A stretch of DNA of 64,000 nt from Escherichia phage vB_EcoM_CRJP21, in the sequence record OQ708376.1; one strand, written 5' to 3'. Each line of letters opens with the position of its first letter. Positions within the stretch are counted from its first letter, which is position 1. Made by a program: the position numbers and the translations under genes. Positions 3,417 through 52,366 of this stretch are shown piece after piece. The notes below the pieces were generated by a model. That model searched no databases. It was not told the DNA's origin and worked only from the letters and a program-made list of their open reading frames with translations.

Positions 3417-3546
3417 TTTATTAAATCTCCATGTAATAAATGTGTTTTAGTATTTATAAGACTAAAAAAGATTAAATTAAACTAATTTTTATATTCTCTA
3501 TAGTTTCATAAATATTTCTATAATACATCTATTAAAAGGGAATGTT

Positions 3547-5762: not shown

Positions 5763-7502
5763 ATGAGTTGGAAACGACATATGACAGTGGGAAGGTCTAA
5801 ACTATCGACCATCCCAAATCAGTCCAGTAATAGCAATAAATCAACAGGAACGAAAACAAATTTCGCTTCCTATCTTCCTGTTGTATATAATGGATTGGCA
5901 AATCGTACTGAGCGTTATAGTCAGTATGAGCAAATGGACCAAGATCCTGAAATTAGAACTGCATTGAATATAATTGCTGACTTTTGTACTCAAAGTACTG
6001 AAGATTTTGGTTTACCATATAAAATCAAATATAAAGATGATATTGGTGATACTGAAGTAACGACTATTGAAGATCGTTTAGATGCATGGACTGAACAAAA
6101 TGATTTTAAAACACGAATGTATGAAATTGTGCGTGGTCTTCTGAAATATGGTGATCAATTTTTCATTCGAGATCCAGAAACATTCGATTGGTATTGGGTA
6201 AGTCCCAAAAATGTTGAGCAAGTATTTGTTAACGAAGCCACTGGTAAAACACCAGTAATTTATTATATACGTGACGTATCATTAAATTTGAAAGATAAAG
6301 TTTTTAGTAACCTTCAAGTAGGATTTGATAAAACCGCTTATCCAGGAGCTATTCCAACAACAATGGGTGGTGGTGGTTCAGTAGCTGCTGGTGGTGCATC
6401 TGGTTTTACAAGTCAAGGAAATACGGCTGACCCATTCAGTACTAACGGTCAATTAGACGTTATTCCTGTTGGTGCAGAACACGTAATTCATCTAACACTA
6501 AATACAGGACAAGATGGGGTATGGCCTTTTGGTACTAGTATACTTGAGGACGTATTTAAAGTCTATAAGCAAAAAGAACTTCTGGAAGATAGTATCATAA
6601 TTTATCGTGTACAACGTGCACCTGAGCGTCGTGTATTTAAAATTGATGTTGGTGATATGCAAGCACACCAAGCGATGGCTTATGTTGAAAGATTTAAAAA
6701 TGAAATCCACCAGCGTAGAATACCTTCAAACAAAGGTGGAAGTACTTCACTAATGGATGCAGCGTATAATCCATTAAGCATTTTAGAAGACTACTTTTTC
6801 CCACAAACTTCTGAAGGTCGTGGTTCAGATGTTCAAACATTACCAGGCGGTGATAACTTAGGACAAATTGATGACTTACGTTATTTCAATAATAAATTGA
6901 TTCGTGGTCTTCAAATACCAGCTTCATATCTACCACAAGGTCCAGATGATGGTGGTGTTTCATTATTTGGTGATGGTGCTACACAAGCTATGGCAAGTGA
7001 ATTGCGATTCAATAATCAATGTATGCGTTATCAACGTTTAGTTGCAAAACATTTTGATGCTGAATTCAAAAGATTTATGGTTAAAAATGGATATAACATT
7101 AGTACTTCATCTTTTGAAGTTATTATGAATCCACCTATTAACTTAGCTTCTTATCGTAAAGCTGAACTAGATGCTAAACTAATTAATACATATCTTCCTC
7201 TTAATGACTTGCCTTATATGGCAAAACAAACAATTCTTGAAAAAATGGGCTTTTCTAAAGCTGATATTGTTAAGAATGAACAAATGTGGTTACAAGAGAA
7301 TCCACAAGATGGTTCCCAACCTTCTGGTGGTGAAGAAGATTCCGCAGGATTGCAGTCTGTTGGTATTGATGCTCCAAATGATCCTGGAATGGATCTTGGT
7401 ATTGATGGAGAAGGTAATTTGGAAAGTGCTGATGCCGAATACCAAGAGCAACAGAGTGGAAGTGGTGGTTTCGACCCTAATAATTTAGGCAATTCTTTTT
7501 AA
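5763..7502 (+). CDS. Portal vertex protein (T4 gp20-like)
   Basis: LEDSIIIYRVQRAPERRVFKIDVGDM matches T4 gp20 [33 protein letters not shown]...DVQTLPGGDN matches EDYWLQ...EVDTLPGADN. Confidence 0.9.
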   Translation: MSWKRHMTVGRSKLSTIPNQSSNSNKSTGTKTNFASYLPVVYNGLANRTERYSQYEQMDQDPEIRTALNIIADFCTQSTEDFGLPYKIKYKDDIGDTEVTTIEDRLDAWTEQNDFKTRMYEIVRGLLKYGDQFFIRDPETFDWYWVSPKNVEQVFVNEATGKTPVIYYIRDVSLNLKDKVFSNLQVGFDKTAYPGAIPTTMGGGGSVAAGGASGFTSQGNTADPFSTNGQLDVIPVGAEHVIHLTLNTGQDGVWPFGTSILEDVFKVYKQKELLEDSIIIYRVQRAPERRVFKIDVGDMQAHQAMAYVERFKNEIHQRRIPSNKGGSTSLMDAAYNPLSILEDYFFPQTSEGRGSDVQTLPGGDNLGQIDDLRYFNNKLIRGLQIPASYLPQGPDDGGVSLFGDGATQAMASELRFNNQCMRYQRLVAKHFDAEFKRFMVKNGYNISTSSFEVIMNPPINLASYRKAELDAKLINTYLPLNDLPYMAKQTILEKMGFSKADIVKNEQMWLQENPQDGSQPSGGEEDSAGLQSVGIDAPNDPGMDLGIDGEGNLESADAEYQEQQSGSGGFDPNNLGNSF

Positions 7503-7523
7503 ACATAAATAACAATGTATAAG

Positions 7524-7549
7524 AATGAGGGTTTATTTTTACCCTCATT
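7524..7549 (+). terminator. Hairpin after portal gene (possible attenuating terminator)
   Basis: Stem aatgagggt/accctcatt with T-rich loop; no clean T-run after stem. Confidence 0.35.
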
Positions 7550-7575
7550 TATAATGCATATTTCAAGGAGATCAA

Positions 7576-7803
7576 ATGTTAAAGGACATCTTTGAATCTA
7601 GCAGTGATTCAATGTACGACCCTGAAGATGATCAGAACGTATATAAAATTACTGATTCCAGAAAACCGAAACTAACATTACAAGTATTAAACAACTTAAG
7701 AAAGTACCGTGAATTTAAAGCACATGAAGAACAACGCCGCAAAAATGTGGTTGCAGTTGTTTATGCCGCTGCACCAACAGGTGACGGTTCTGGGTTAATG
7801 TAA
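7576..7803 (+). CDS. Hypothetical small protein (possible prohead core protein by position)
   Basis: 75-aa ORF with RBS aaggag; sits between portal and protease where T4 has gp67/gp68. Confidence 0.45.
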   Translation: MLKDIFESSSDSMYDPEDDQNVYKITDSRKPKLTLQVLNNLRKYREFKAHEEQRRKNVVAVVYAAAPTGDGSGLM

Positions 7804-7904
7804 ACCGAAAATCGCACTTTTTAAAGCTTTTAAAAAAGGCGATTTTATTCAGTACTAAATAATATCATACTTTATACGAATGTAATATATCTATGGAGGA
7901 TATA

Positions 7905-8753
7905 ATGGCGAATTTAAAACTACTACAAGAAGCAATTGCGGCGTTTGCAAATGGCGAACAAGATATTGCTGATAAAAAAATGCGTAAGTATTTCGTTGAG
8001 CAAGCTCAAGAAATTAACAAACAACTAGAAGAAAGCATGGAAGATGAAGACGACGATGAAGATTGTGAAGTCGAAGTTAAAGTCAAAGATGAAGAAAAGC
8101 TTGACGAAGATTTTGATGTACAACCAGACGAAGGTCTAAATGCTGAAATCGAATACACCCTTGGTGAAGAAGATGAAAGTGCAGAAGAAGAAGTTGAATT
8201 CTCTGCTGATGCAGATGGTGACGGTGAAGACGATGTTGACGTTGAAGTGAAAGCTGATGCTGATGTTCCTTCCGAAGACCAATGGGAATCAATCCAAGAT
8301 GCTTTCCGTGGCCTACAACAAATGTTTGATGAAATCGGTGACGGTGAAGTTGATCTAGATTCTGAAGAAGAAGTAGAAGATAGCGAAGAAGAAGTTGGTG
8401 TTGACGGTGACGACGAATTTGCTGATGTTGAATTCGGCGATGAAAAATTCGGTGAATCCTTCAAACTAGAAAAAGTTGCTCCAGTTGATAAGAAAGAAAA
8501 AGCTGGCACTCATTCCAAATCTCCAGTAGCACCAGAAGCTAAATCTCCAGTAGCAGGAGCAGAGCCAGTTAAATTCGCTAAGAAAACTGACCAAGCCCCA
8601 CTACTAGACCTAGATGATAAATCTGTTCTACCAAAAGATAGCCTAGATCTTGGTAAAAATGCTCGCGGTGAAATGAAAGATGTTAAAGCACCAAAAACTA
8701 CTGCATCTAATTCTAAATCACCACTAAGCAAAGCACAACCTAAACTAAAATAA
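7905..8753 (+). CDS. Highly acidic protein, putative prohead core/scaffold component
   Basis: D/E-rich ORF in head module; RBS ggagg; upstream leader shares conserved element with capsid gene leader. Confidence 0.55.
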   Translation: MANLKLLQEAIAAFANGEQDIADKKMRKYFVEQAQEINKQLEESMEDEDDDEDCEVEVKVKDEEKLDEDFDVQPDEGLNAEIEYTLGEEDESAEEEVEFSADADGDGEDDVDVEVKADADVPSEDQWESIQDAFRGLQQMFDEIGDGEVDLDSEEEVEDSEEEVGVDGDDEFADVEFGDEKFGESFKLEKVAPVDKKEKAGTHSKSPVAPEAKSPVAGAEPVKFAKKTDQAPLLDLDDKSVLPKDSLDLGKNARGEMKDVKAPKTTASNSKSPLSKAQPKLK

Positions 8754-8773
8754 ATATCTGAAAGGAGATCATT

Positions 8774-9397
8774 ATGAGTAGTATGATTCGTGAATGGTCT
8801 TCATTCAATGATTCTAAAGTTGTTTTGGAACATCGTGATAATGGATTTGGTGGGCGTGACTGCTATCTTCGTGGTATTGCTATTCAAGCCGACCAACGAA
8901 ATTTGAACGAGAGAATTTACCCTTTATCTGAAATTACAAGGGCAGTAAATAACATGAACCAGCGTTTAGCTAAAGGTGAAAGCATTCTTGTTGAATGTGA
9001 CCATCCAGAAACACTAACTATTAACCTAGACCGTGTAGCAGCAATGATTACTAAGGTTTGGATGGAAGGTGCTAATGGTATGGCAGAAATCAAACTACTT
9101 GATACTGCACATGGTCAGAATATCCGTAAAATGCTAGAGGCTGGTGTAAAACTTGGTGTAAGTTCTCGCGGTTCCGGTAACGTTGATTATAATGGAATAG
9201 TTTCTGATTTTGAAATTATCACTATTGATATTGTTGCTCAACCTAGTGCTCCAGAAGCATACCCAACAGCGGTATTTGAATCTCTGATGAGTAAGTACGG
9301 ATCACCTTGTAATAGTTCTAAAAAAATCACTGAATCTAAAAAAGTAAATAATTTAGATTCTGAAATATACGATTTTTTCAAGAAATTAAAAGGTTAA
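8774..9397 (+). CDS. Prohead core protease (T4 gp21-like)
   Basis: 207 aa (T4 gp21 ~212 aa), position between portal and scaffold/capsid genes; N-terminal region resembles gp21 as recalled. Confidence 0.6.
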   Translation: MSSMIREWSSFNDSKVVLEHRDNGFGGRDCYLRGIAIQADQRNLNERIYPLSEITRAVNNMNQRLAKGESILVECDHPETLTINLDRVAAMITKVWMEGANGMAEIKLLDTAHGQNIRKMLEAGVKLGVSSRGSGNVDYNGIVSDFEIITIDIVAQPSAPEAYPTAVFESLMSKYGSPCNSSKKITESKKVNNLDSEIYDFFKKLKG

Positions 9398-9463
9398 CAT
9401 TTTAAAAATATAAATATCTGTATGTTGAAGTACAGATATTTCAGTACTTAAAGGAGAGAACGA

Positions 9464-10579
9464 ATGTCTAAATTAGAAAAGCTTCTAAAAGAATCATCTC
9501 TTTCTGATGAGGCAAAACAGCTAATTCAGGAAGCATGGAATGAAGAAAAGAATACACTAGCCGCAGAGATGCGTGAAGAAATGAAAGGCCGTTATCAGCA
9601 AGATTTGGCTGAACTAACCGAAGGTTTGAACACGATGGTTACTCAAGTCATTGCTGAAGAAATGGGTGCTGTATATGAAGAGAAAAAACGTCTCGTTGAA
9701 GATCGTGTAACTCTACGTAAAACACTAAGCAATTTCTCTGCGTTTTCAAACTCTGTTTTGGCTGAAGAAGTTAAACAAATGCGTAAAGAACGTAAGCATC
9801 TTCATGAATGCATGGGTAAATTCGTTAATTTTTCTAACGGTATCCTAGCAGAAGAGCTAAAAGAATTCCACACTGAAAAACGCCAACTAGTAGAAACTCG
9901 CGTTAAACTACTTGCTGAAGGTTCACGTCAAATTGCTGAAGCTCGTAATAACTTCATCAAACGTACATCTGAAAGTGCTGCTAAATATATTGCAGAAACC
10001 ACTCAGAAGAATCTATATGCGTTGAAACAAGATCTAGTGGAAGCAAAACAAAATATGTTTGGTCGTAAAATCTTTGAAGCATTTGCTCAAGAGTTTAATG
10101 TCAAACAATTTAATGAAAACTCATTGCTACGTTCCCTAACTGAATCAATTAAATCTAAAGAAGATGAAATTGCTCAAGTTAAGCAAGAACTACATGAAAC
10201 TGCTAATGCCGTTAAAGCTGCTAAAACCAAACTACGTATTATGGAAGATGCACAAGCACGTAATGCGATTATGTCTGAACTAGTAAAACCACTAACTGCA
10301 CAGCAAAAACAAATTATGGAATCCCTTCTAGCTACTTCACCTACTGAAAAGCTTAAAGAAGATTTCAGCAAGTACCATAAGTCAGTACTTAACGGTACTA
10401 AAGTAAATGAATCTGCTACCACTCGTCAAGCAGTTCAGTCTTCCGCTAAGAAAACTCTTGCAGAAGGTAAAGTAATCACTGGCAACCGTCAGGCTATTGT
10501 TGAAAGCGAAGAAATGACCGCTGACGATATGGCATTCCTAAAAGAACTCGATGTTCTTTCAGGTATCAATAAAAAATAA
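9464..10579 (+). CDS. Prohead scaffold protein (gp22-like, coiled-coil)
   Basis: K/E/A/Q-rich helical protein immediately upstream of major capsid gene; late-promoter-like TATAAATA at 9409-9416. Confidence 0.55.
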   Translation: MSKLEKLLKESSLSDEAKQLIQEAWNEEKNTLAAEMREEMKGRYQQDLAELTEGLNTMVTQVIAEEMGAVYEEKKRLVEDRVTLRKTLSNFSAFSNSVLAEEVKQMRKERKHLHECMGKFVNFSNGILAEELKEFHTEKRQLVETRVKLLAEGSRQIAEARNNFIKRTSESAAKYIAETTQKNLYALKQDLVEAKQNMFGRKIFEAFAQEFNVKQFNENSLLRSLTESIKSKEDEIAQVKQELHETANAVKAAKTKLRIMEDAQARNAIMSELVKPLTAQQKQIMESLLATSPTEKLKEDFSKYHKSVLNGTKVNESATTRQAVQSSAKKTLAEGKVITGNRQAIVESEEMTADDMAFLKELDVLSGINKK

Positions 10580-10617
10580 ACATTTTAAAGCATTTTAATA
10601 ATCAAATTTTTCAGTTC

Positions 10618-10625
10618 TATAAATA
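10618..10625 (+). promoter_or_regulatory. T4-type late promoter core TATAAATA upstream of capsid gene
   Basis: Exact TATAAATA about 45 nt upstream of ATG 10671; embedded in leader element shared with 7847-7907. Confidence 0.5.
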
Positions 10626-10670
10626 ATATCATACTGAAAAACGAATATAACATCTTTAAGGAGATATATA

Positions 10671-11846
10671 ATGTCACAACTACTAAATGAATCCAAATGG
10701 GTAGCAGTAAAAGAGAAACTAGTTGAAGGTCTACAGGGTACTCGTAAGTCTGTAATGGAAACTGTTCTTGATAACCATCGTAAAGTTATGCTAACTGAAT
10801 CCGCAACTTCTGGTGCAACTACCGCTGGTAACATCGCTACTCTAAACAAAGTGATTCTACCAATTATGCGTCGTGTAATGCCAACCGTTATTGCTAACGA
10901 AATCATCGGTGTTCAACCAATGACTGGTCCAGTTGGTCAGATCCACACCCTACGTGTGCAATATGCTGATAACGCACCTGGTGTTATCGCTGGTGAAGAA
11001 ATGCTTTCTCCATACAAAATCGCTAAATCCTACTCTGGTGATCTAAATGCGGATAATAGCAACCCACAAGCTGCTCCTACTAGCCAACTAGAAGGTACTA
11101 TGGGTCGTCGCGTTAACATCCGTATTCTACGTGAAACTGTTGAAGCGAAATCTCGTCGTCTATCTGCACGTTGGACTGTTGAATCTGCACAAGATGCTCA
11201 ATCCCAACATGGTGTTGACGTTGAAGCAGAACTAATGGCTGCAATCGCTCAAGAAGTTACCGTAGAAATCGACCAAGAGCTACTAAGCCGTCTACGTGCA
11301 CTACCTGGTGCTGCTGCTGTAACTTATGACCAATCTAAAGTTACTGGTGTTGCAACCTTCGTTGGTGATGAGCACGCTGCTCTAGCAACTCTAATTAACC
11401 GTCAAGCAAACGAAGTTGCTCGTCGTACTAAGCGTGGTGCTGCAAACTGGGCTGTTGTTTCCCCAACTGCACTAACCATTCTACAATCTGCTACTACTTC
11501 TAGCTTTGCACGTACCACTGAAGGTACTTTCGAAGCACCAACTAACGTTAAGTTTGTAGGTACTCTAAACAGCACTATGCGTATTTTTGTTGATACTTAT
11601 GCAAGTGATGCAGAAGATATTCTAATTGGTTATAAAGGTAATGCAGAAACTGATGCTGGTGTGTTCTATTGCCCATACATCCCACTAATGGCTTCCGGTA
11701 CTGTAATGGACCCTAACACTGGGGAATTGGTCACAACTTTCTTAACCAGGTATGGTTATGTTCAGTTGACCGATAGCACCAGTTCACTAGGTAACGCTGC
11801 GGACTACTACAGCAAAATCGCTATCAAAAACGTTACTTTCATGTAA
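10671..11846 (+). CDS. Major capsid protein (T4 gp23-like)
   Basis: IANEIIGVQPMTGPVGQIHTLRVQY matches T4 gp23 IAFDICGVQPMNSPTGQVFALRAVY; ETVEAKSRRLSARWTVESAQD and GYKGNAETDAGVFYCPYIPL also match gp23. Confidence 0.9.
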   Translation: MSQLLNESKWVAVKEKLVEGLQGTRKSVMETVLDNHRKVMLTESATSGATTAGNIATLNKVILPIMRRVMPTVIANEIIGVQPMTGPVGQIHTLRVQYADNAPGVIAGEEMLSPYKIAKSYSGDLNADNSNPQAAPTSQLEGTMGRRVNIRILRETVEAKSRRLSARWTVESAQDAQSQHGVDVEAELMAAIAQEVTVEIDQELLSRLRALPGAAAVTYDQSKVTGVATFVGDEHAALATLINRQANEVARRTKRGAANWAVVSPTALTILQSATTSSFARTTEGTFEAPTNVKFVGTLNSTMRIFVDTYASDAEDILIGYKGNAETDAGVFYCPYIPLMASGTVMDPNTGELVTTFLTRYGYVQLTDSTSSLGNAADYYSKIAIKNVTFM

Positions 11847-11890
11847 TTGTAATAGATTTAAAAGATTTAATCAAAAAAAATAAAAACAAT

Positions 11891-11920
11891 AGGGACTCTT
11901 CGGAGTCCCTTTTCTTTTTA
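11891..11920 (+). terminator. Strong rho-independent terminator after capsid gene
   Basis: agggactc-ttcg-gagtccct hairpin followed by TTTTCTTTTT. Confidence 0.8.
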
Positions 11921-11931
11921 TTAAAAAACCC

Positions 11932-11960
11932 TTGACACAATGTTCTGGAATGTATATAAT
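11932..11960 (+). promoter_or_regulatory. Consensus sigma70-type promoter (TTGACA-N17-TATAAT)
   Basis: TTGACA 11932-11937, 17-nt spacer, TATAAT 11955-11960. Confidence 0.65.
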
Positions 11961-11992
11961 ACGCACATACACGAAAATAAAGAGACAAAATT

Positions 11993-13090
11993 ATGCCAAA
12001 CGTAAGTATCACCAAAGAAGAGTTTATCAGCAAAATGACTGCTAAGTATGGTGAATTTGATTTCAGTACTTTAGTATTCAAAGCAAGTAAGACAACAGTG
12101 AAATGTAACAAGTGTGGAAAAGAAAACACCAAACCTGCACTTCGTCACATTGCATGTACATGTGCATCATGTTATTCAAACATGTCACAACGTTCAAACA
12201 ACGACACATTCATCAGTACTGTAGAAACTAAATTTGGAAAAGATAAATTCAAATTTGATAAACTAAATTACACTAATGCTATATCAAAAGTAACAATTTT
12301 CTGCACAGATGAAGATCACAATGATTACTTTGAAATTACACCCAATAAATTTCTTTCTGGTAAAGGATGCCCCGTATGTAATAAAAATGAAGCATACAGT
12401 ACTGAAGAGTTCAAAGAAAAAGTAAAAGATAATTATGGTGATTTATTGGATTTAACTAACACGGTGTATGTAAATCAAAAAACTAAAGTAACTGTGTATT
12501 GTAACGCAGGTAATCATGAATGGACAGTTGATCCAAAAACTTTACTTGTTGGTAAGACTGGATGTGGTACATGCTCCGGTAAAGGCGGTCGAAGTACTGA
12601 ACGTTTCATTGAACTTGTGTCGCCTATCCATAACCATAAGTATGATTATAGCTTGGTGGATTACAAGACTAGTGATGAACATGTGGATATTATTTGTCCT
12701 GAACATGGTGTCTTTAAACAAATACCCAAATCTCATATGGCAGGAAGAGGATGTCCATCATGTGGTGAGTATGGTTATCAACCATCAAAGCCTGGATATT
12801 TCTATGTACAAAAACTATCTAATAACTCAAAAGTCGTTTACAAATACGGAATTACCGGAGACATGAAGAGACGAATTCATGAACAAAGTCGCAATTCTGA
12901 GTTCGAGCATGAAGTACTGGTAGAACGTTACTTTGAGGATGGTAATAAACCATTATTATTGGAAAAGTTTATCAAGCAATACATTGAAAGTGGTGTTGTA
13001 AGTACTGAAGAGTTACCGTCAGGATTTACTGAAACATTTGATGCTAAGTATCTTGAAAGTGTTTTAGAAATTGTAAATACTTTTAAGTAA
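11993..13090 (+). CDS. Multi-zinc-ribbon protein with C-terminal T5orf172/GIY-YIG-like domain
   Basis: Four repeats of the type GKGCPVCNK / GKTGCGTCSGK / GRGCPSCGE; C-terminus GYFYV...KYGITGDMKRRIHEQ...FTETFD resembles T5orf172 domain. Confidence 0.55.
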   Translation: MPNVSITKEEFISKMTAKYGEFDFSTLVFKASKTTVKCNKCGKENTKPALRHIACTCASCYSNMSQRSNNDTFISTVETKFGKDKFKFDKLNYTNAISKVTIFCTDEDHNDYFEITPNKFLSGKGCPVCNKNEAYSTEEFKEKVKDNYGDLLDLTNTVYVNQKTKVTVYCNAGNHEWTVDPKTLLVGKTGCGTCSGKGGRSTERFIELVSPIHNHKYDYSLVDYKTSDEHVDIICPEHGVFKQIPKSHMAGRGCPSCGEYGYQPSKPGYFYVQKLSNNSKVVYKYGITGDMKRRIHEQSRNSEFEHEVLVERYFEDGNKPLLLEKFIKQYIESGVVSTEELPSGFTETFDAKYLESVLEIVNTFK

Positions 13091-19620: not shown

Positions 19621-19917
19621 ATGAGTAATATATATAAGCGTATTGGTGAAGTATTAGAAGGTAATGGTATCATTAATTCTGTACTAGCATATGATAATGA
19701 TGAAGAAGTAGTTCTAATTGGTGCGGGTTTTACTCGCACTGGTTCAGTGGAAGTTGACGGAGAGATTGCTGATGTTTACACTCTTGTGAAAAAGCGTAAA
19801 GTTGTTTTTGTCGATGATGTACATACATTAAAAGACTTGAAAAAATTACGCGATAAAATTGGCATGAGTTCTACAATTGATAAGCCTTATCTTCAACGTT
19901 GGAATACAAAATACTGA
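19621..19917 (+). CDS. Hypothetical protein
   Basis: 98-aa ORF downstream of polymerase. Confidence 0.4.
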   Translation: MSNIYKRIGEVLEGNGIINSVLAYDNDEEVVLIGAGFTRTGSVEVDGEIADVYTLVKKRKVVFVDDVHTLKDLKKLRDKIGMSSTIDKPYLQRWNTKY

Positions 19918-20018
19918 TAAAAAATTGAGACAAGCATCATTTTTGAGATATAATGGTGCTTGTAGTAATCTTACATAAAAACATTTTTTGATTAACAAAT
20001 AAAACGGAGAATTATATA

Positions 20019-23393: not shown

Positions 23394-23534
23394 GAAAATC
23401 TCCTTGTCAAATTTTGTGCAGGTATATCCTGCTTAAAGTTATTTATCAAAAAATATCACTAGCATTTAAATTTACTGAGATATTTAATGAATTTCTATGA
23501 TATTATTTATCAAATCTGGGAAAGTGATTCAAGA

Positions 23535-23545
23535 TGTGCTATAAT
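23535..23545 (+). promoter_or_regulatory. Extended -10 promoter TGTGCTATAAT
   Basis: Exact 11-mer upstream of FEN/RNase H gene. Confidence 0.5.
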
Positions 23546-23554
23546 TATTAATGA

Positions 23555-28812
<5,258 letters not shown>

Positions 28813-28840
28813 TTAAAAAATATGGGACAGTATAAAAACC

Positions 28841-28851
28841 TGTGCTATAAT
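28841..28851 (+). promoter_or_regulatory. Extended -10 promoter TGTGCTATAAT (second TGnTATAAT at 28768-28776)
   Basis: Exact 11-mer about 90 nt upstream of SSB gene. Confidence 0.5.
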
Positions 28852-28938
28852 GTAAAACGTTGAAGGAACAATGAAGTTTCTGAAACATTGAAGCCAATTA
28901 ACAAATAACAAAGAAACCCAAAATCAAGGAAGATATAT

Positions 28939-32521: not shown

Positions 32522-34006
32522 ATGAAAACTTGTAAGTTAACCTTATTGGATGAGGTGAATTGTAAATTTGAGGGACTTGATCCCTCAATTAGACAAAAGA
32601 TGATTCGTGCAACTGAATATGTGTTGCCATATGCAAAGTTCACACCAGCAGGACGTATTGGACGTTGGGATGGTAAAGTTCAGTTTATGAATTTAGGCGG
32701 GACAACTTATTATCATATGTTAGATAAGTTATTGCCTATTCTTGATGAAGCTAAGATTGACATTGAATTAGTAGATCATAGGGTAGATTATGGATTTAAA
32801 TTTGACCCTATTGATGAAGATATTTTTAGTGATGTTGTATTCGGTGCAGGACACCACATGGAAGGTAAATCCATAAAACTGCGTGAACATCAAGTTAATG
32901 CGGTTAATGCATGTTTGGCTAATCCACACGGACTACTATTGGCAGCTACTGGTGCAGGTAAAACTCTCATTACTGCTGCATTGTCAAAGAAAGTGCAAGA
33001 GTATGGACGTTCTGTTATAATAGTACCAAGTACTGATTTAGTACAACAAACATATGATGACTATATTATGTGTGGCTTGGACACTGGTATGTTCTATGGT
33101 TCACAAAAAGATTTCGGTCACCAACATACAATCACGACTTGGCAATCTTTTAACTCTCTTTGGAAGAAAACCAAAAAAGGTGAAATAGAATTAACAGAAC
33201 AAGACGTGAATGATTTTATCGATGGAGTAGTTTGTGTTATCGTTGATGAGTGTCAAGGTGCAGGCGGTGACGCATTAGTTCAAGTACTTTCTAAAGTTAT
33301 GAATAACGTACCATTACGTTGGGGTCTTACTGGAACAATTCCTAAAGATCCGGTAGTTGCCGCGAAAATCAAATGTAATGTTGGTGATGTTATATTTAAA
33401 ATAACTGCAAAGGAATTACAAGATAAACAAATACTAAGTACATGTAATGTGAATTGCATCAAACTAAAAAGTAGTATGAAGTTTGCATCATATGCTGAAG
33501 AGTTGAAATACTTAGTAACTGACAGAGATAGGATGGCATATGTAGCGTCATTGATATCTGCGTTATCTGAATCAGGAAACACTTTAGTTTTAGTAGATAG
33601 ACTTGAAGCAGGTGAGTTGCTATGTGAATTTTTAGGCATTCCCAAATCAGAATTCGTTCGTGGAGAAACTAAAAAGAAAGATCGAGAATCATCTTATGGT
33701 GAAATTCGTTGGGCTGATAATAAAATACTTATTGCGACATACGGCGTTGCCAGTACTGGTATTAGTATTTCAAGGTTATATAATGTAGTATTGATTGAGC
33801 CAGGAAAAAGTTTTGTAAGAACTATACAGTCAATTGGACGTGGATTACGCCGAGCAGAAGATAAAGATCACGTAGAAATATATGATATTAGTGGTTCTAA
33901 TAAGTATAGTGCAAAGCATTTACGAGAACGTTTAGCTTACTATAAGGAAGCACAATATCCTCATAGTATTATAGATGTTAAAGATTGGGAAAACACAGCG
34001 GGATAA
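32522..34006 (+). CDS. uvsW: SF2 DNA/RNA helicase UvsW
   Basis: Motif I ATGAGKT; motif II VDECQ; LIATYGVASTGISI...IQSIGRGLR matches T4 UvsW VASYGVFSTGISV...LQTIGRVLR; N-terminal WDGK. Confidence 0.85.
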   Translation: MKTCKLTLLDEVNCKFEGLDPSIRQKMIRATEYVLPYAKFTPAGRIGRWDGKVQFMNLGGTTYYHMLDKLLPILDEAKIDIELVDHRVDYGFKFDPIDEDIFSDVVFGAGHHMEGKSIKLREHQVNAVNACLANPHGLLLAATGAGKTLITAALSKKVQEYGRSVIIVPSTDLVQQTYDDYIMCGLDTGMFYGSQKDFGHQHTITTWQSFNSLWKKTKKGEIELTEQDVNDFIDGVVCVIVDECQGAGGDALVQVLSKVMNNVPLRWGLTGTIPKDPVVAAKIKCNVGDVIFKITAKELQDKQILSTCNVNCIKLKSSMKFASYAEELKYLVTDRDRMAYVASLISALSESGNTLVLVDRLEAGELLCEFLGIPKSEFVRGETKKKDRESSYGEIRWADNKILIATYGVASTGISISRLYNVVLIEPGKSFVRTIQSIGRGLRRAEDKDHVEIYDISGSNKYSAKHLRERLAYYKEAQYPHSIIDVKDWENTAG

Positions 34007-34028
34007 ACCCGCTGTTTGTGATATAATG
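34002..34028 (+). promoter_or_regulatory. Hairpin followed by extended -10 promoter variant TGTGATATAAT
   Basis: Hairpin cagcggg-ataaa-cccgctg then TGTGATATAAT at 34018-34028. Confidence 0.45.
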
Positions 34029-37820: not shown

Positions 37821-37877
37821 ATTAGTTCCATAAATATTAGTATAAATTTATACCTATTATTTATGGAAGGAAAAACT

Positions 37878-44908: not shown

Positions 44909-45244
44909 ATGAGATTTCGTGATCTTACTGAAGAGGCTCCTGGTAAAGATATACGCAATATGATTACTACTATTGCGTTGTCTTTAGTGTCCACGGGTCG
45001 AGAAGAAGTAAATGTTCAATCTTTGATTTCTGAAATTAAAAAGAGAACCAACATCGATGTTCCATACAATGTAATGATGGACATTTTGAATTCCCTTCCT
45101 TTTGTACAGGATGCTAATTCTGATGTTGTAACTTTTGCAGGAAATTCAGCAGAAGGTTCAGAAGAAGTCGAGCAAGATTCTGAAGAGCAAGTTGAAGATT
45201 GGGCCACAAAAGCTGCTGTGACAGCAAATAAACAAAAAAACTGA
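44909..45244 (+). CDS. Hypothetical protein
   Basis: ORF with RBS aaggac. Confidence 0.45.
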   Translation: MRFRDLTEEAPGKDIRNMITTIALSLVSTGREEVNVQSLISEIKKRTNIDVPYNVMMDILNSLPFVQDANSDVVTFAGNSAEGSEEVEQDSEEQVEDWATKAAVTANKQKN

Positions 45245-45261
45245 GACAAATTAAAATATAA

Positions 45262-45270
45262 TGCTATAAT
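45262..45270 (+). promoter_or_regulatory. Extended -10 promoter variant ATGCTATAAT
   Basis: TGCTATAAT directly upstream of the aggag RBS of the nuclease gene. Confidence 0.4.
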
Positions 45271-45283
45271 TAGGAGTACACGG

Positions 45284-50890: not shown

Positions 50891-52366
<1,476 letters not shown>

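Follow-up and report, generated by a model that had tools for sequence, protein, structure and literature searches.

Two old copies of a putative T4-type late-promoter-plus-leader cassette precede the acidic virion protein and major capsid genes of a 121Q-like jumbo coliphage

Introduction

The head-gene block of Escherichia phage vB_EcoM_CRJP21 raises the question of why two of its genes, one for an acidic virion protein and the other for the major capsid protein, are preceded by closely similar DNA. The stretch analyzed here, referred to as the window, comprises 64,000 nt of record OQ708376.1, and its source is a 121Q/G17-like jumbo coliphage (Asteriusvirus). A first-pass annotation of the window had described the shared sequence as a near-identical element of about 60 nt, and had read it as the conserved promoter and translation-initiation leader of a co-regulated late regulon. 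Our analysis confirmed the observation and partly supported the interpretation: we read the shared sequence as one late-promoter-plus-leader cassette that is present in two old copies, in an ordinary T4-style arrangement. The arrangement is not new in kind, as the same motif was predicted earlier for the related phages CBB and GAP32.

Results

The element shared by the acidic and capsid genes is real. Positions 7848-7907 and 10610-10673 match in 50 of 64 alignment columns (78%), and the pair, with a score of 42.5, was the top outlier when all 2850 pairs of 98-nt upstream regions within the window were used as control (mean 9.7, sd 2.2). The description as near-identical holds for the first ~27 nt (23/27 matching) but not beyond. 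Homology is also longer than 60 nt: 7816-7907 matches 10580-10673 in 74 of 97 columns (76%), which covers the ~95-nt upstream regions throughout. The 15-mer AAATAATATCATACT is present exactly in both cassettes, with no other exact copy in the window; when up to 3 mismatches were allowed there were 17 matches against 10.8 expected, that is, no enrichment. Both cassettes contain strong ribosome-binding sites, and 14 phages from several genera have them at corresponding positions. In Sharanji, IA-38 and Turkey5 the extended cassette was found twice per 350-kb genome, and in EC.P1 at three places. In turn, ACGAAT, which had been listed as a conserved part of the element, differs even in close relatives (ATGAAT in Turkey3, AGGAAT in A4). 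The features of the region are collected in Table 1, where the start codon of the acidic gene is taken as in the G17 annotation.

Table 1. Features of the head-gene block and its flanks (positions in the window).
Feature	Position	Strand	Remarks
ATAAATA right after portal stop; candidate late promoter of small gene 7576-7803	7505-7511	+	CATAAATA 7504-7511
Stem-loop within small-gene leader	7515-7559	+	-20.3 kcal/mol, z = -3.7
Terminator-like hairpin and U-tract, small gene/acidic gene gap	7808-7849	+	-12.5 kcal/mol, z = -3.3
TTCAGTACT with AGTACT at 7851-7856	7848-7856	+	not promoter-specific
CTAAATA variant -10-type box, acidic cassette	7855-7861	+	within ACTAAATA 7854-7861
Predicted 38-nt 5' UTR, acidic gene	7867-7904	+	predicted +1 A7867; GGAGG 7895-7899
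Acidic virion protein gene, T4 gene 68 position	7905-8753	+	phrog_15696, virion structural protein
ATAAATA over acidic-gene stop; candidate protease-gene promoter	8750-8756	+	AATAAATA 8749-8756
TATAAATA box, putative scaffold gene promoter	9409-9416	+	orthologous site is Porf_256 in CBB paper (PMC5259590)
Conserved stem-loop over scaffold promoter 3' end	9412-9441	+	-13.4 kcal/mol, z = -2.7
TTCAGTACT in scaffold leader (AGTACT word)	9440-9448	+	sequence match
Upstream part of capsid cassette	10580-10609	+	homologous to acidic terminator-loop region; no fold, 0 kcal/mol
TTCAGTTCT, counterpart of TTCAGTACT	10610-10618	+	4 to 7 nt from box, varying by genus
TATAAATA box, putative major capsid promoter	10618-10625	+	core ATAAATA 10619-10625
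Predicted 40-nt 5' UTR, capsid gene	10631-10670	+	UAAGGAG 10657-10663, 7-nt spacer
Major capsid protein gene (gp23 family)	10671-11846	+	PF07068, E = 1.3e-89
Strong intrinsic terminator ending head-gene block	11891-11920	+	-19.6 kcal/mol, z = -4.5

The functional core of the cassette is ATAAATA, a 7-mer with 21 copies in the window. Of these, 17 are in non-coding DNA and 15 sit 17-87 nt 5' of a start codon on the same strand, in an upstream non-coding zone amounting to 1.9% of strand positions (p = 8.5e-22). None of its 21 one-mismatch variants behaves alike in the window. The total is below expectation (21 vs 36.8 +/- 6.1), the word having been purged from genes, and the 8-mer TATAAATA per se is not enriched in the window (7 observed, 10 expected). 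G17 has five copies in the adjacent 17.5 kb, all of them intergenic and 5' of structural genes. The products encoded 3' of the boxes are portal-block, head, tail-fibre and virion structural proteins; in the head-gene cluster the exact box precedes four genes, and the variant ACTAAATA the fifth, the acidic gene. This distribution supports the view that a T4-type box would drive a late regulon in this phage. Of the co-regulated regulon proposed in the first-pass annotation, then, what stands is the clustering of the box before virion genes, but the ~60-nt element is not its common promoter: it has two copies per genome, and the remaining late genes would share no more than the 7-mer and an A at the start.

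In a profile of 23 sites, the predicted +1, located 6 nt past the box, is A in 18 and a purine in 21. Position -5 is A/T in 21/23, G is never found at -5 or -4, and -13 is without base preference. No conserved -35 element appeared in this profile, just weak T-richness at -24..-19, and the head block gave no good matches to sigma-70 promoters. The start at A7867 was deduced from the T4 rule, by which the box occupies -13..-6, and from the A at the same offset in the profile. Start sites and timing are inferred because the literature searched yielded no mapped transcript 5' ends or time courses for RaK2-like phages; the RNA-seq paper on PA5oct gives sigma-70-like motifs only.

The T4-type core that had been pointed out in the capsid copy is indeed there, and this box is unchanged in 12 phages; a 2-nt alignment gap turns it into the ACTAAATA of the acidic copy. 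The box of the acidic cassette is TATAAATA or AATAAATA in Munch, Hallingskeid, EJP2, CBB, GAP32, XbC2, Yen9-04 and BF, and CTAAATA in the 121Q-like phages and in RaK2/Muenster. CTAAATA has 10 copies in the window, lies upstream only at the acidic gene and shows no upstream enrichment.

Regarding the other genes of the block, the related motifs described before the protease and scaffold genes were recovered as TAAATATCTG at 8751-8760 and 9411-9420, and as TTCAGTACT in the scaffold leader. The candidate protease promoter would leave a leader of merely ~12 nt; its box is present in the 121Q-like, Munch, Hallingskeid and EJP2 lineages and missing from CBB, GAP32, Yen9-04 and RaK2. The small-gene box is conserved at its place in all 14 related phages, as CTAAATA in Munch, and the stem in its leader is replaced in other genera by a different sequence at the same location. 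The scaffold stem-loop has 11 pairs, and its cross-genus changes stay G-U compatible on the + strand. As for hairpin 7808-7849, the Munch annotation has a terminator at its place, and its outer pairs vary on both sides across genera; its A/U-rich stem is broken by internal loops, and it is absent from the list produced by a terminator consensus scan. The terminator that ends the block has the form of an intrinsic terminator, a G+C-containing hairpin running straight into a U-tract: its stem is of 8 bp, 5 of them G-C, and its tail is TTTTCTTTTT. It is kept in all relatives and is annotated in G17. A hairpin around the acidic ribosome-binding site is weak (-4.6 kcal/mol, z = -0.5), and the capsid 5' UTR is predicted to be unstructured (-1.8 kcal/mol, z = +0.6), with no consensus structure. 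The Rfam search of 7400-12100 gave a single weak sub-threshold match, over the terminator (11831-11920, E = 0.56).

In G17, a 99.7%-identical genome, a gp55-family sigma of 279 aa (G17_00333) is encoded ~2.9 kb outside the window start. Its hits are phrog_12791 (E = 2.4e-154) and phrog_234 (E = 8.4e-18), the latter annotated as 'late sigma transcription factor'; Pfam and PDB sequence searches gave none. Its gene adjoins gp47/46-like genes, a synteny that CBB shares. Since no homologs of the co-activator gp33 or the sliding clamp gp45 were detected in CBB by its authors (PMC5259590), activation may differ from that of T4.

Discussion

We consider it probable (about 0.8) that the two elements are paralogous cassettes, in each of which a late promoter of the T4 type is followed by a short 5' UTR with a strong ribosome-binding site. 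Late in infection, the host RNA polymerase with the phage gp55-family sigma would recognize ATAAATA at -12 to -6, melt the next 5 bp, which are A/T-rich, and initiate at the A six bases past the box, which is A10631 in the capsid cassette and A7867 in the acidic one. With UAAGGAG or GGAGG 5-7 nt 5' of the ATG, the A/U-rich leader of 38-40 nt produced in this way would be expected to give very high translation. Together with the small-, protease- and scaffold-gene boxes, hairpin 7808-7849 and terminator 11891-11920, the cassettes would form a T4-like multi-promoter head block. Regarding their history, the acidic-gene cassette may be the older one, the capsid copy being a duplicate that would predate the divergence of the enterobacterial RaK2-like genera and would have lost the terminator stem. 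In PA5oct the cassette is found solely before the ortholog of the acidic gene.

The following features of a T4-type late promoter are found here: the box or a close variant, no conserved -35, an A/T-rich downstream stretch with a predicted purine start, placement at virion genes, and a gp55-family sigma. As in the gp55-dependent late promoters of T4, where the box lies at -13..-6 and an upstream element is not needed, a lone -10-type A/T box is located about one helical turn 5' of the predicted start and is directly followed by the A/T-rich stretch; boxes precede virion genes on either strand. The head genes have separate putative promoters in the order portal, small core proteins, protease, scaffold, capsid, just as genes 20, 21, 22, 23 and 24 of T4 each have a late promoter of their own. 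Furthermore, one box lies on the upstream stop codon, like T4 P22 on the gene 21 stop, and the sigma gene is beside gp46/47 homologs in both cases. There are also differences. The core here has 7 bp and a free -13, whereas the T4 TATAAATA has T or A at -13; the T4-type family match is confined to residues 125-262 of the 279-aa sigma; and the capsid promoter is intergenic with a predicted 40-nt leader, unlike T4 P23, which lies inside gene 22, 142 nt upstream.

The conservation of the leaders could also be explained by an operator. The shared blocks, namely CATAC at the start site, ATATCT ahead of the ribosome-binding site and the GGAG-ATATA spacer, would then be bound by a dedicated phage factor that co-ordinates the amounts of capsid and acidic protein. 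This factor could bind the DNA, in the manner of T4 DsbA at late promoters, or regulate translation on the mRNA. Across genera the capsid leader indeed keeps 81-93% identity, whereas capsid third-codon positions have 66-73% and the DNA 5' of the capsid box 50-60%, and the same blocks are found in both cassettes of every genus. In addition, the Vibrio phage cassettes share another start-proximal sequence, TATAAATA(G/A)AGTTATATAAA, and T4 DsbA reportedly binds A/T-rich sites overlapping two late promoters. We nevertheless regard this explanation as rather unlikely, given that the conserved blocks fall on generic sites (start site, ribosome-binding site, spacer), that folding and alignment showed no stable or covarying RNA structure and Rfam no match to one, and that no candidate factor was identified. 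Moreover, in promoter plus leader the orthologs (identity 0.73-0.98) are closer to each other than the paralogs (0.66-0.78), which indicates that the copies are not being kept identical.

The same comparison bears on a recent origin of the similarity in the 121Q-like lineage, through gene conversion or recombination between the intergenic regions, or through a small repeated or mobile element. Within-genome cassette scores are about twice as high in this lineage (40-44.5 in the window, UE-S1, Turkey3 and A4) as in other genera (19.5-24.5), and in the window, UE-S1 and Turkey3, though not in A4, the capsid copy has replaced ATAAC by ATATC, the form found in the acidic copy. An old duplication by itself does not explain this higher similarity. 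However, the extra identity amounts to a few substitutions, the positions of the cassettes are identical in all genera, RaK2 also retains the upstream TTTTTAA(G/C)GC..TTTTAA similarity, and orthologs exceed paralogs. Dispersed repeats or mobile elements have many scattered copies with defined ends, and the cassette occupies just two or three places per genome. We regard a recent origin of the similarity as unlikely and retain the paralogous promoter-plus-leader cassettes as the preferred reading.

A third proposal concerns TTCAGT(A/T)CT, which would be a -35-like or UP-like upstream element of strong late promoters. It lies immediately 5' of the box in both cassettes and in the capsid copies of RaK2 and A4, and the T-richness at -24 to -19 of the 23 late promoters could be read in the same sense. 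Its distribution largely refutes this proposal, which we consider very unlikely. The window holds 25 copies against 2.0 expected, most of them within genes, on both strands and with flanks that are not conserved; the first-pass annotation had itself named a similar frequency of its motif inside coding regions as an argument against its reading, and TTCAGTACT fails that test. The palindrome AGTACT is in excess throughout the genome (103 observed, about 18 expected), in this phage clade only; TTCAGTACT forms part of that excess and is no promoter element. In coding DNA AGTACT is 3-fold above synonymous-codon shuffles, and it occurs in 4 of the 23 promoter windows, where about 2 are expected. Furthermore, the distance to the box ranges from 4 to 7 nt by genus, other sequence stands there in Munch and CBB, most other late promoters are without it, and T4-type late promoters require no upstream element. 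Finally, chance likeness of two A/T-rich intergenic regions, conceivable in a window of 34% G+C with its loose matches to the 15-mer, is practically excluded, as the pair lies ~15 sd above the control mean and both cassettes are conserved across genera.

In CBB, ATAAATA followed by A/T-rich DNA is the predicted late 'promoter 3' (Buttimer et al. 2017, PMC5259590), and the same late-promoter motif had been predicted earlier for GAP32, as cited there. The 7-mer, its placement before structural genes and the proposed role are identical to those described here, and CTAAATA variants are also among the published CBB promoters (PMC5259590). On the other hand, the published list is without entries for the capsid gene CBB_257 and the acidic-protein gene CBB_254, and a paralogous cassette is not described in that paper (PMC5259590). 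No comparable promoter analysis of 121Q-like coliphages was found in the literature searched. The Aeromonas phage Aeh1 has, according to an in-silico result, the late consensus (A/G)CTAAATA; the acidic copy ACTAAATA is of this type, with A/G-C at -13/-12, although CTAAATA in the window is otherwise not tied to gene starts.

The T7 gene 10 leader is a strong ribosome-binding site with an upstream enhancer role. Like the capsid leader of the window, it is A/U-rich, precedes the major capsid gene and contains CUUUAAG..GGAGAUAUA..AUG, reading CTTTAAGAAGGAGATATACATATG in T7 and CTTTAAGGAGATATATAATG here. The promoter, the polymerase and the 5' part of the leader are different, and the epsilon sequence TTAACTTTA is absent as such, the window having TAACATCTTTA. 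A gene 10-type enhancer, with epsilon UUAACUUUA 5' of a strong ribosome-binding site, is not found either, as the window reads UAACAUCUUUAAGGAG. The resemblance, limited to CUUUAAG and GGAGAUAUA, is short and probably convergent rather than due to homology.

Two copies of one element in the head-gene block

The window is 99-99.7% identical to the Escherichia jumbo phages UB, 121Q, G17, Sharanji and PBECO4 (Asteriusvirus, RaK2-like), and the two cassettes under study sit in a T4-like head-gene block with the order of T4 genes 20-67-68-21-22-23. The first-pass annotation had described a near-identical element of about 60 nt before the acidic virion-protein gene and the major capsid gene. This element is real: 7848-7907 and 10610-10673 match in 50 of 64 alignment columns (78%), including 23 of 27 in the 5' part, and the 15-mer AAATAATATCATACT is exact in both and occurs nowhere else in the window. 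Furthermore, the homology extends upstream beyond the span first described (7816-7907 against 10580-10673; 74 of 97 columns). When the 98-nt regions 5' of 76 genes in the window were compared by all-against-all local alignment (2850 pairs), the cassette pair obtained the top score, 42.5 against a mean of 9.7 (sd 2.2). A dispersed repeat was rejected, since a search of complete 350-kb genomes of the group located the element at two places only (three in one record).

The T4-type core attributed to the capsid copy is likewise present, as TATAAATA (the 8-mer form of the box) at 10618-10625; the acidic-gene copy, aligned with a 2-nt gap, reads ACTAAATA there (7854-7861). The related motifs before the protease and scaffold genes were correctly placed, with TAAATATCTG at 8751-8760 and 9411-9420 and TTCAGTACT at 9440-9448. 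The observation is therefore confirmed, and its interpretation as a co-regulated late regulon was right in outline: the T4-type box and the strong translation starts stand, whereas the 60-nt element and TTCAGTACT, the short arm 5' of the box, do not hold as a common regulon signal. The result is a usable predicted transcription map for the 121Q-like head module, which places start sites, five late boxes and two terminators, one strong and one putative.

Features of the head-gene block and related elements in the window
Feature	Position	Strand	Details
Portal gene	5763-7502		Portal_T4
Box, then leader stem-loop	7505-7511; stem-loop 7515-7559	+	-20.3 kcal/mol
75-aa protein gene	7576-7803
Terminator-like hairpin and U-tract	7808-7849	+	-12.5 kcal/mol, z = -3.3; pair changes on both sides across genera
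Acidic-gene cassette	box 7855-7861	+	predicted +1 A7867; 38-nt leader; GGAGG 7895-7899
Acidic virion structural protein gene	7905-8753
Box over acidic-gene stop codon	8750-8756	+	some lineages only
Prohead protease gene	8774-9397		Peptidase_S77
Scaffold box	9409-9416	+	overlapped by conserved stem-loop 9412-9441
Scaffold protein gene	9464-10579
Capsid cassette	box 10618-10625	+	predicted +1 A10631; 40-nt leader; UAAGGAG 10657-10663; 7-nt spacer
Major capsid protein gene	10671-11846		Gp23
Strong terminator	11891-11920	+	then perfect TTGACA-17-TATAAT promoter of next gene
Sigma-70-like repeat family	1615-1654; 19917-19956; 23507-23545; 28739-28778; 28814-28853; 33986-34028; 45233-45272; 50932-50968
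AGTACT, examples	7851-7856; 9443-9448; 12065-13006

The box over the acidic-gene stop codon has a counterpart in T4, where P22 lies over the stop of gene 21. The stem-loop at the scaffold box (-13.4 kcal/mol) points to an RNA-level role, for example in processing, stabilisation or attenuation, because the substitutions between genera remain G-U compatible on the + strand. Because it shares sequence with the 3' end of the scaffold promoter box, this stem-loop could fold fully only in read-through RNA coming from upstream.

Directly after the capsid terminator, the gene at 11993-13090 has its own perfect sigma-70 promoter (TTGACA-17-TATAAT, 11932-11960) within the late block. Its product of 365 aa contains repeated CxxC...STE(E/R)F modules (DUF4379 in the Turkey3 annotation), and the 1.1-kb gene carries six AGTACT sites. 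In UE-S1 a different sequence follows the terminator, a sign of an insertion that may be endonuclease-like. A second promoter class is formed by a direct-repeat family, (T/G)G(A/G)GACA, about 17 nt and TG(C/A)TATAAT, which is sigma-70-like with an extended -10. Early or middle activity is probable for both this family and the promoter at 11932-11960; in CBB, a "divergent RpoD-like" class described by its authors is comparable (PMC5259590).

ATAAATA as the probable late-promoter core

The functional core of the promoter is the 7-mer ATAAATA. It has 21 copies over both strands of the window, 17 of them non-coding, and 15 of the 21 lie 17-87 nt upstream of a same-strand start codon, a zone that comprises 1.9% of strand positions (p = 8.5e-22). 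No upstream enrichment was found in the window for any of 21 one-mismatch variants, CTAAATA included. The 7-mer is rarer overall than expected (21 against 36.8 +/- 6.1 in dinucleotide shuffles) and has therefore been purged from coding DNA. Counted globally in the window, the 8-mer TATAAATA shows no enrichment (7 observed, 10.1 expected); the signal of the box emerges only on splitting the 7-mer counts by location. In G17, a 99.7%-identical genome that covers the DNA beyond the window start, all five copies in the adjoining 17.5 kb lie between genes, 5' of ones for baseplate or structural proteins. The genes downstream of the boxes encode tail fibre, virion structural proteins, baseplate hub and head proteins.

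Alignment of 23 sites revealed neither a -35 element nor a base preference at -13. At -5, 21 of the 23 have A or T, and six bases 3' of the box there is an A in 18 sites and a purine in 21. Published T4 late promoters, with the box at -13 to -6, agree with these sites in being A/T-rich downstream of the box and in having no -35. All start sites and the late timing proposed here are predictions; a literature search for mapped start sites in the RaK2-like group found none. The motif itself is already published for sister genera, in line with the T4 paradigm: ATAAATA was predicted as late promoter in CBB and GAP32, with CTAAATA variants among those listed, and the sites given for CBB contain that of the scaffold gene but lack those of the capsid and acidic genes (PMC5259590). 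What is new is that the cassette exists as two paralogous copies, that the capsid leader is strongly conserved and predicted to be unstructured, and that the acidic gene has a variant box. The strict 7-mer can be used for late-gene annotation in poorly annotated 350-kb genomes.

Two divergent back-to-back late-promoter pairs (37830-37864 and 3451-3514) ranked next after the cassette pair when all upstream regions were aligned with one another. In one of them the ATAAATA boxes, at 37830(+) and 37858(-), face each other across a near-palindromic 21-nt spacer.

A late sigma factor is encoded in G17 about 2.9 kb beyond the window start (279 aa; L015:2923-3762), adjoining gp47/46-like genes, an arrangement shared with T4. 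Two PHROG families match it, "sigma factor for late transcription" at E = 2.4e-154 and "late sigma transcription factor" at E = 8.4e-18, and Pfam and PDB sequence searches gave no match. The T4-type family match of this gp55-like sigma is confined to residues 125-262, leaving an N-terminal extension of about 120 aa. The CBB authors did not detect gp33 and gp45 homologs in that phage (PMC5259590). These promoters would allow a direct study of T4-type late activation independent of the clamp.

Conservation and origin of the two cassettes

For comparison we took the corresponding intergenic regions of 13 relatives (UE-S1, Turkey3, A4, Munch, Hallingskeid, EJP2, CBB, GAP32, XbC2, Yen9-04, Serratia BF, RaK2 and Muenster), and all 13 have both cassettes. 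The features common to the cassettes are ATAAATAA, CATAC (C at -1, A at +1), ATATCT 5' of the ribosome-binding site and GGAG..ATA-ATG. Across genera, the box-to-ATG stretch of the capsid cassette shares 81-93% identity with that of the window; by comparison, third-codon positions of the capsid gene are 66-73% identical and the DNA upstream of its box 50-60%, so the leader is under purifying selection. Folding predictions leave this leader unstructured (-1.8 kcal/mol, z = +0.6), and no consensus RNA structure was found for it across genera. Its 3' end, CUUUAAGGAGAUAUAUAAUG, resembles the T7 gene 10 leader. These features would suit a site where translation starts with high efficiency. For the engineering of phages of this kind, the capsid cassette, which in about 65 nt combines the box, the conserved leader and UAAGGAG, is a compact candidate part for strong late expression. 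The acidic-gene leader is less constrained (71-77% identity), and the one structure in it is a weak hairpin around the ribosome-binding site, invariant and without covariation (z = -0.5). An Rfam scan of 7400-12100 gave nothing relevant.

The two upstream regions resemble each other in every phage (scores of 19.5-24.5 against 8-18 for other pairs), and in the 121Q-like lineage their similarity reaches 40-44.5, about twice that of other genera. Over promoter and leader, identity is 0.73-0.98 between orthologs, 0.66-0.78 between paralogs and about 0.55-0.62 between unrelated A/T-rich leaders. Because orthologs are more alike than paralogs, the pair appears to be an old duplication without pervasive gene conversion, possibly with a few lineage-specific convergent or converted positions. 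In the distant relative PA5oct (L018:4922-9038), the genes for the acidic protein, protease, scaffold and capsid are packed tightly together, 13-20 nt apart and without boxes between them, behind a single upstream terminator-plus-TATAAATA cassette. The acidic-gene cassette looks ancestral, since in PA5oct the terminator with GATATAAATAATATAC...AAAGGAG precedes the acidic-gene ortholog only. Homology to the terminator-loop region (TTTTAAAGC.TTTTAA) persists in the capsid copy, although this copy cannot fold (0 kcal/mol), as would be expected of a duplicated cassette whose terminator has decayed. Paralogous cassettes are present in a related Vibrio phage as well, where the start-proximal sequence is another one. 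About 10 of the 15 ATAAATA copies of PA5oct lie within genes rather than being confined to intergenic DNA, so its late-promoter rule may differ; the PA5oct paper reports only TATAATA/TTGAC as motifs.

Before the acidic gene, CTAAATA is found in the 121Q-like phages and in RaK2/Muenster, and ATAAATA in the other genera compared. The variant may weaken the acidic-gene promoter, since CTAAATA has no general upstream enrichment in the window. Two points argue that it is still functional. The late consensus reported for Aeh1, (A/G)CTAAATA, matches the variant and speaks for a working promoter. In addition, RaK2 has a terminator-like hairpin before the acidic-gene box site and lacks a separate box for the protease gene, so that both genes would presumably be promoterless otherwise.

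A genome-wide excess of AGTACT

The arm TTCAGTACT, taken in the first-pass annotation as part of the promoter and leader element, is no promoter element: TTCAGTWCT has 25 copies in the window (2.0 expected), mostly within genes, on either strand relative to the gene and with flanks that are not conserved. Such a distribution refutes this part of the element by the test that the first-pass annotation had itself set. By k-mer analysis the enriched core is the palindrome AGTACT, with 103 copies against 18.3 +/- 4.2 expected, about 5-fold. It is by far the top hexamer palindrome of the window (4.8-fold, against 2.2-fold for the next). The preferred flanking bases are a 5' C and a 3' G, with CAGTACTG as the best form; at -1 of the half-sites C occurs in 86 of 206 and G in 10 of 206 (background 17% each). 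We consider this excess a more interesting finding than the promoter cassette.

Neither codon usage nor amino-acid order explains the excess, since the 94 coding copies compare with 30.7 +/- 5.0 in synonymous-codon shuffles (about 3-fold) and 21.8 +/- 4.5 under codon permutation. The coding copies come from all three reading frames, and density in non-coding DNA equals that in coding DNA. Moreover, AGTACT distorts codon-pair choice and even dipeptide frequency: AGT-ACT accounts for 57 of 108 Ser-Thr codon pairs (18.5 expected), and Ser-Thr is 1.33-fold over expectation while Thr-Ser is at 0.81-fold. The excess is 3-7-fold in every enterobacterial RaK2-like relative sampled, with site positions in part conserved and in part turned over. 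It is absent from T4 (8 against 17 expected), from 22 kb of PA5oct (0 against 7.5) and from the related Vibrio phage (3 against 2.7), counts that rule out a general trait of the T4 superfamily. A literature search for this excess found nothing.

Tentatively, with a probability of roughly 0.3, we read the TTCAGTACT arm as one instance of a clade-specific genome-wide signal, in which AGTACT would be the site where a dedicated dimeric protein of the phage binds, nicks or modifies the DNA. Such sites could possibly organise the 350-kb genome; alternatively, they could serve as entry points through which DNA metabolism is linked to late transcription in phages with no recognisable gp45/gp33 system. 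A tie to late promoters themselves was not supported, since AGTACT occurs in 4 of 23 promoter windows, with about 2 expected. Biased short-patch repair of deaminated methyl-cytosine was not supported either, because AGTATT/AATACT are not depleted (86 against 81.6; z = 0.4).

Other hexamer palindromes deviate in the opposite direction. CCATGG, CAGCTG, AGGCCT, AGCGCT and ACCGGT are absent from the window (each 0 against about 5.9 expected), and TCTAGA and TTCGAA are depleted in coding DNA, which is consistent with restriction-site avoidance.
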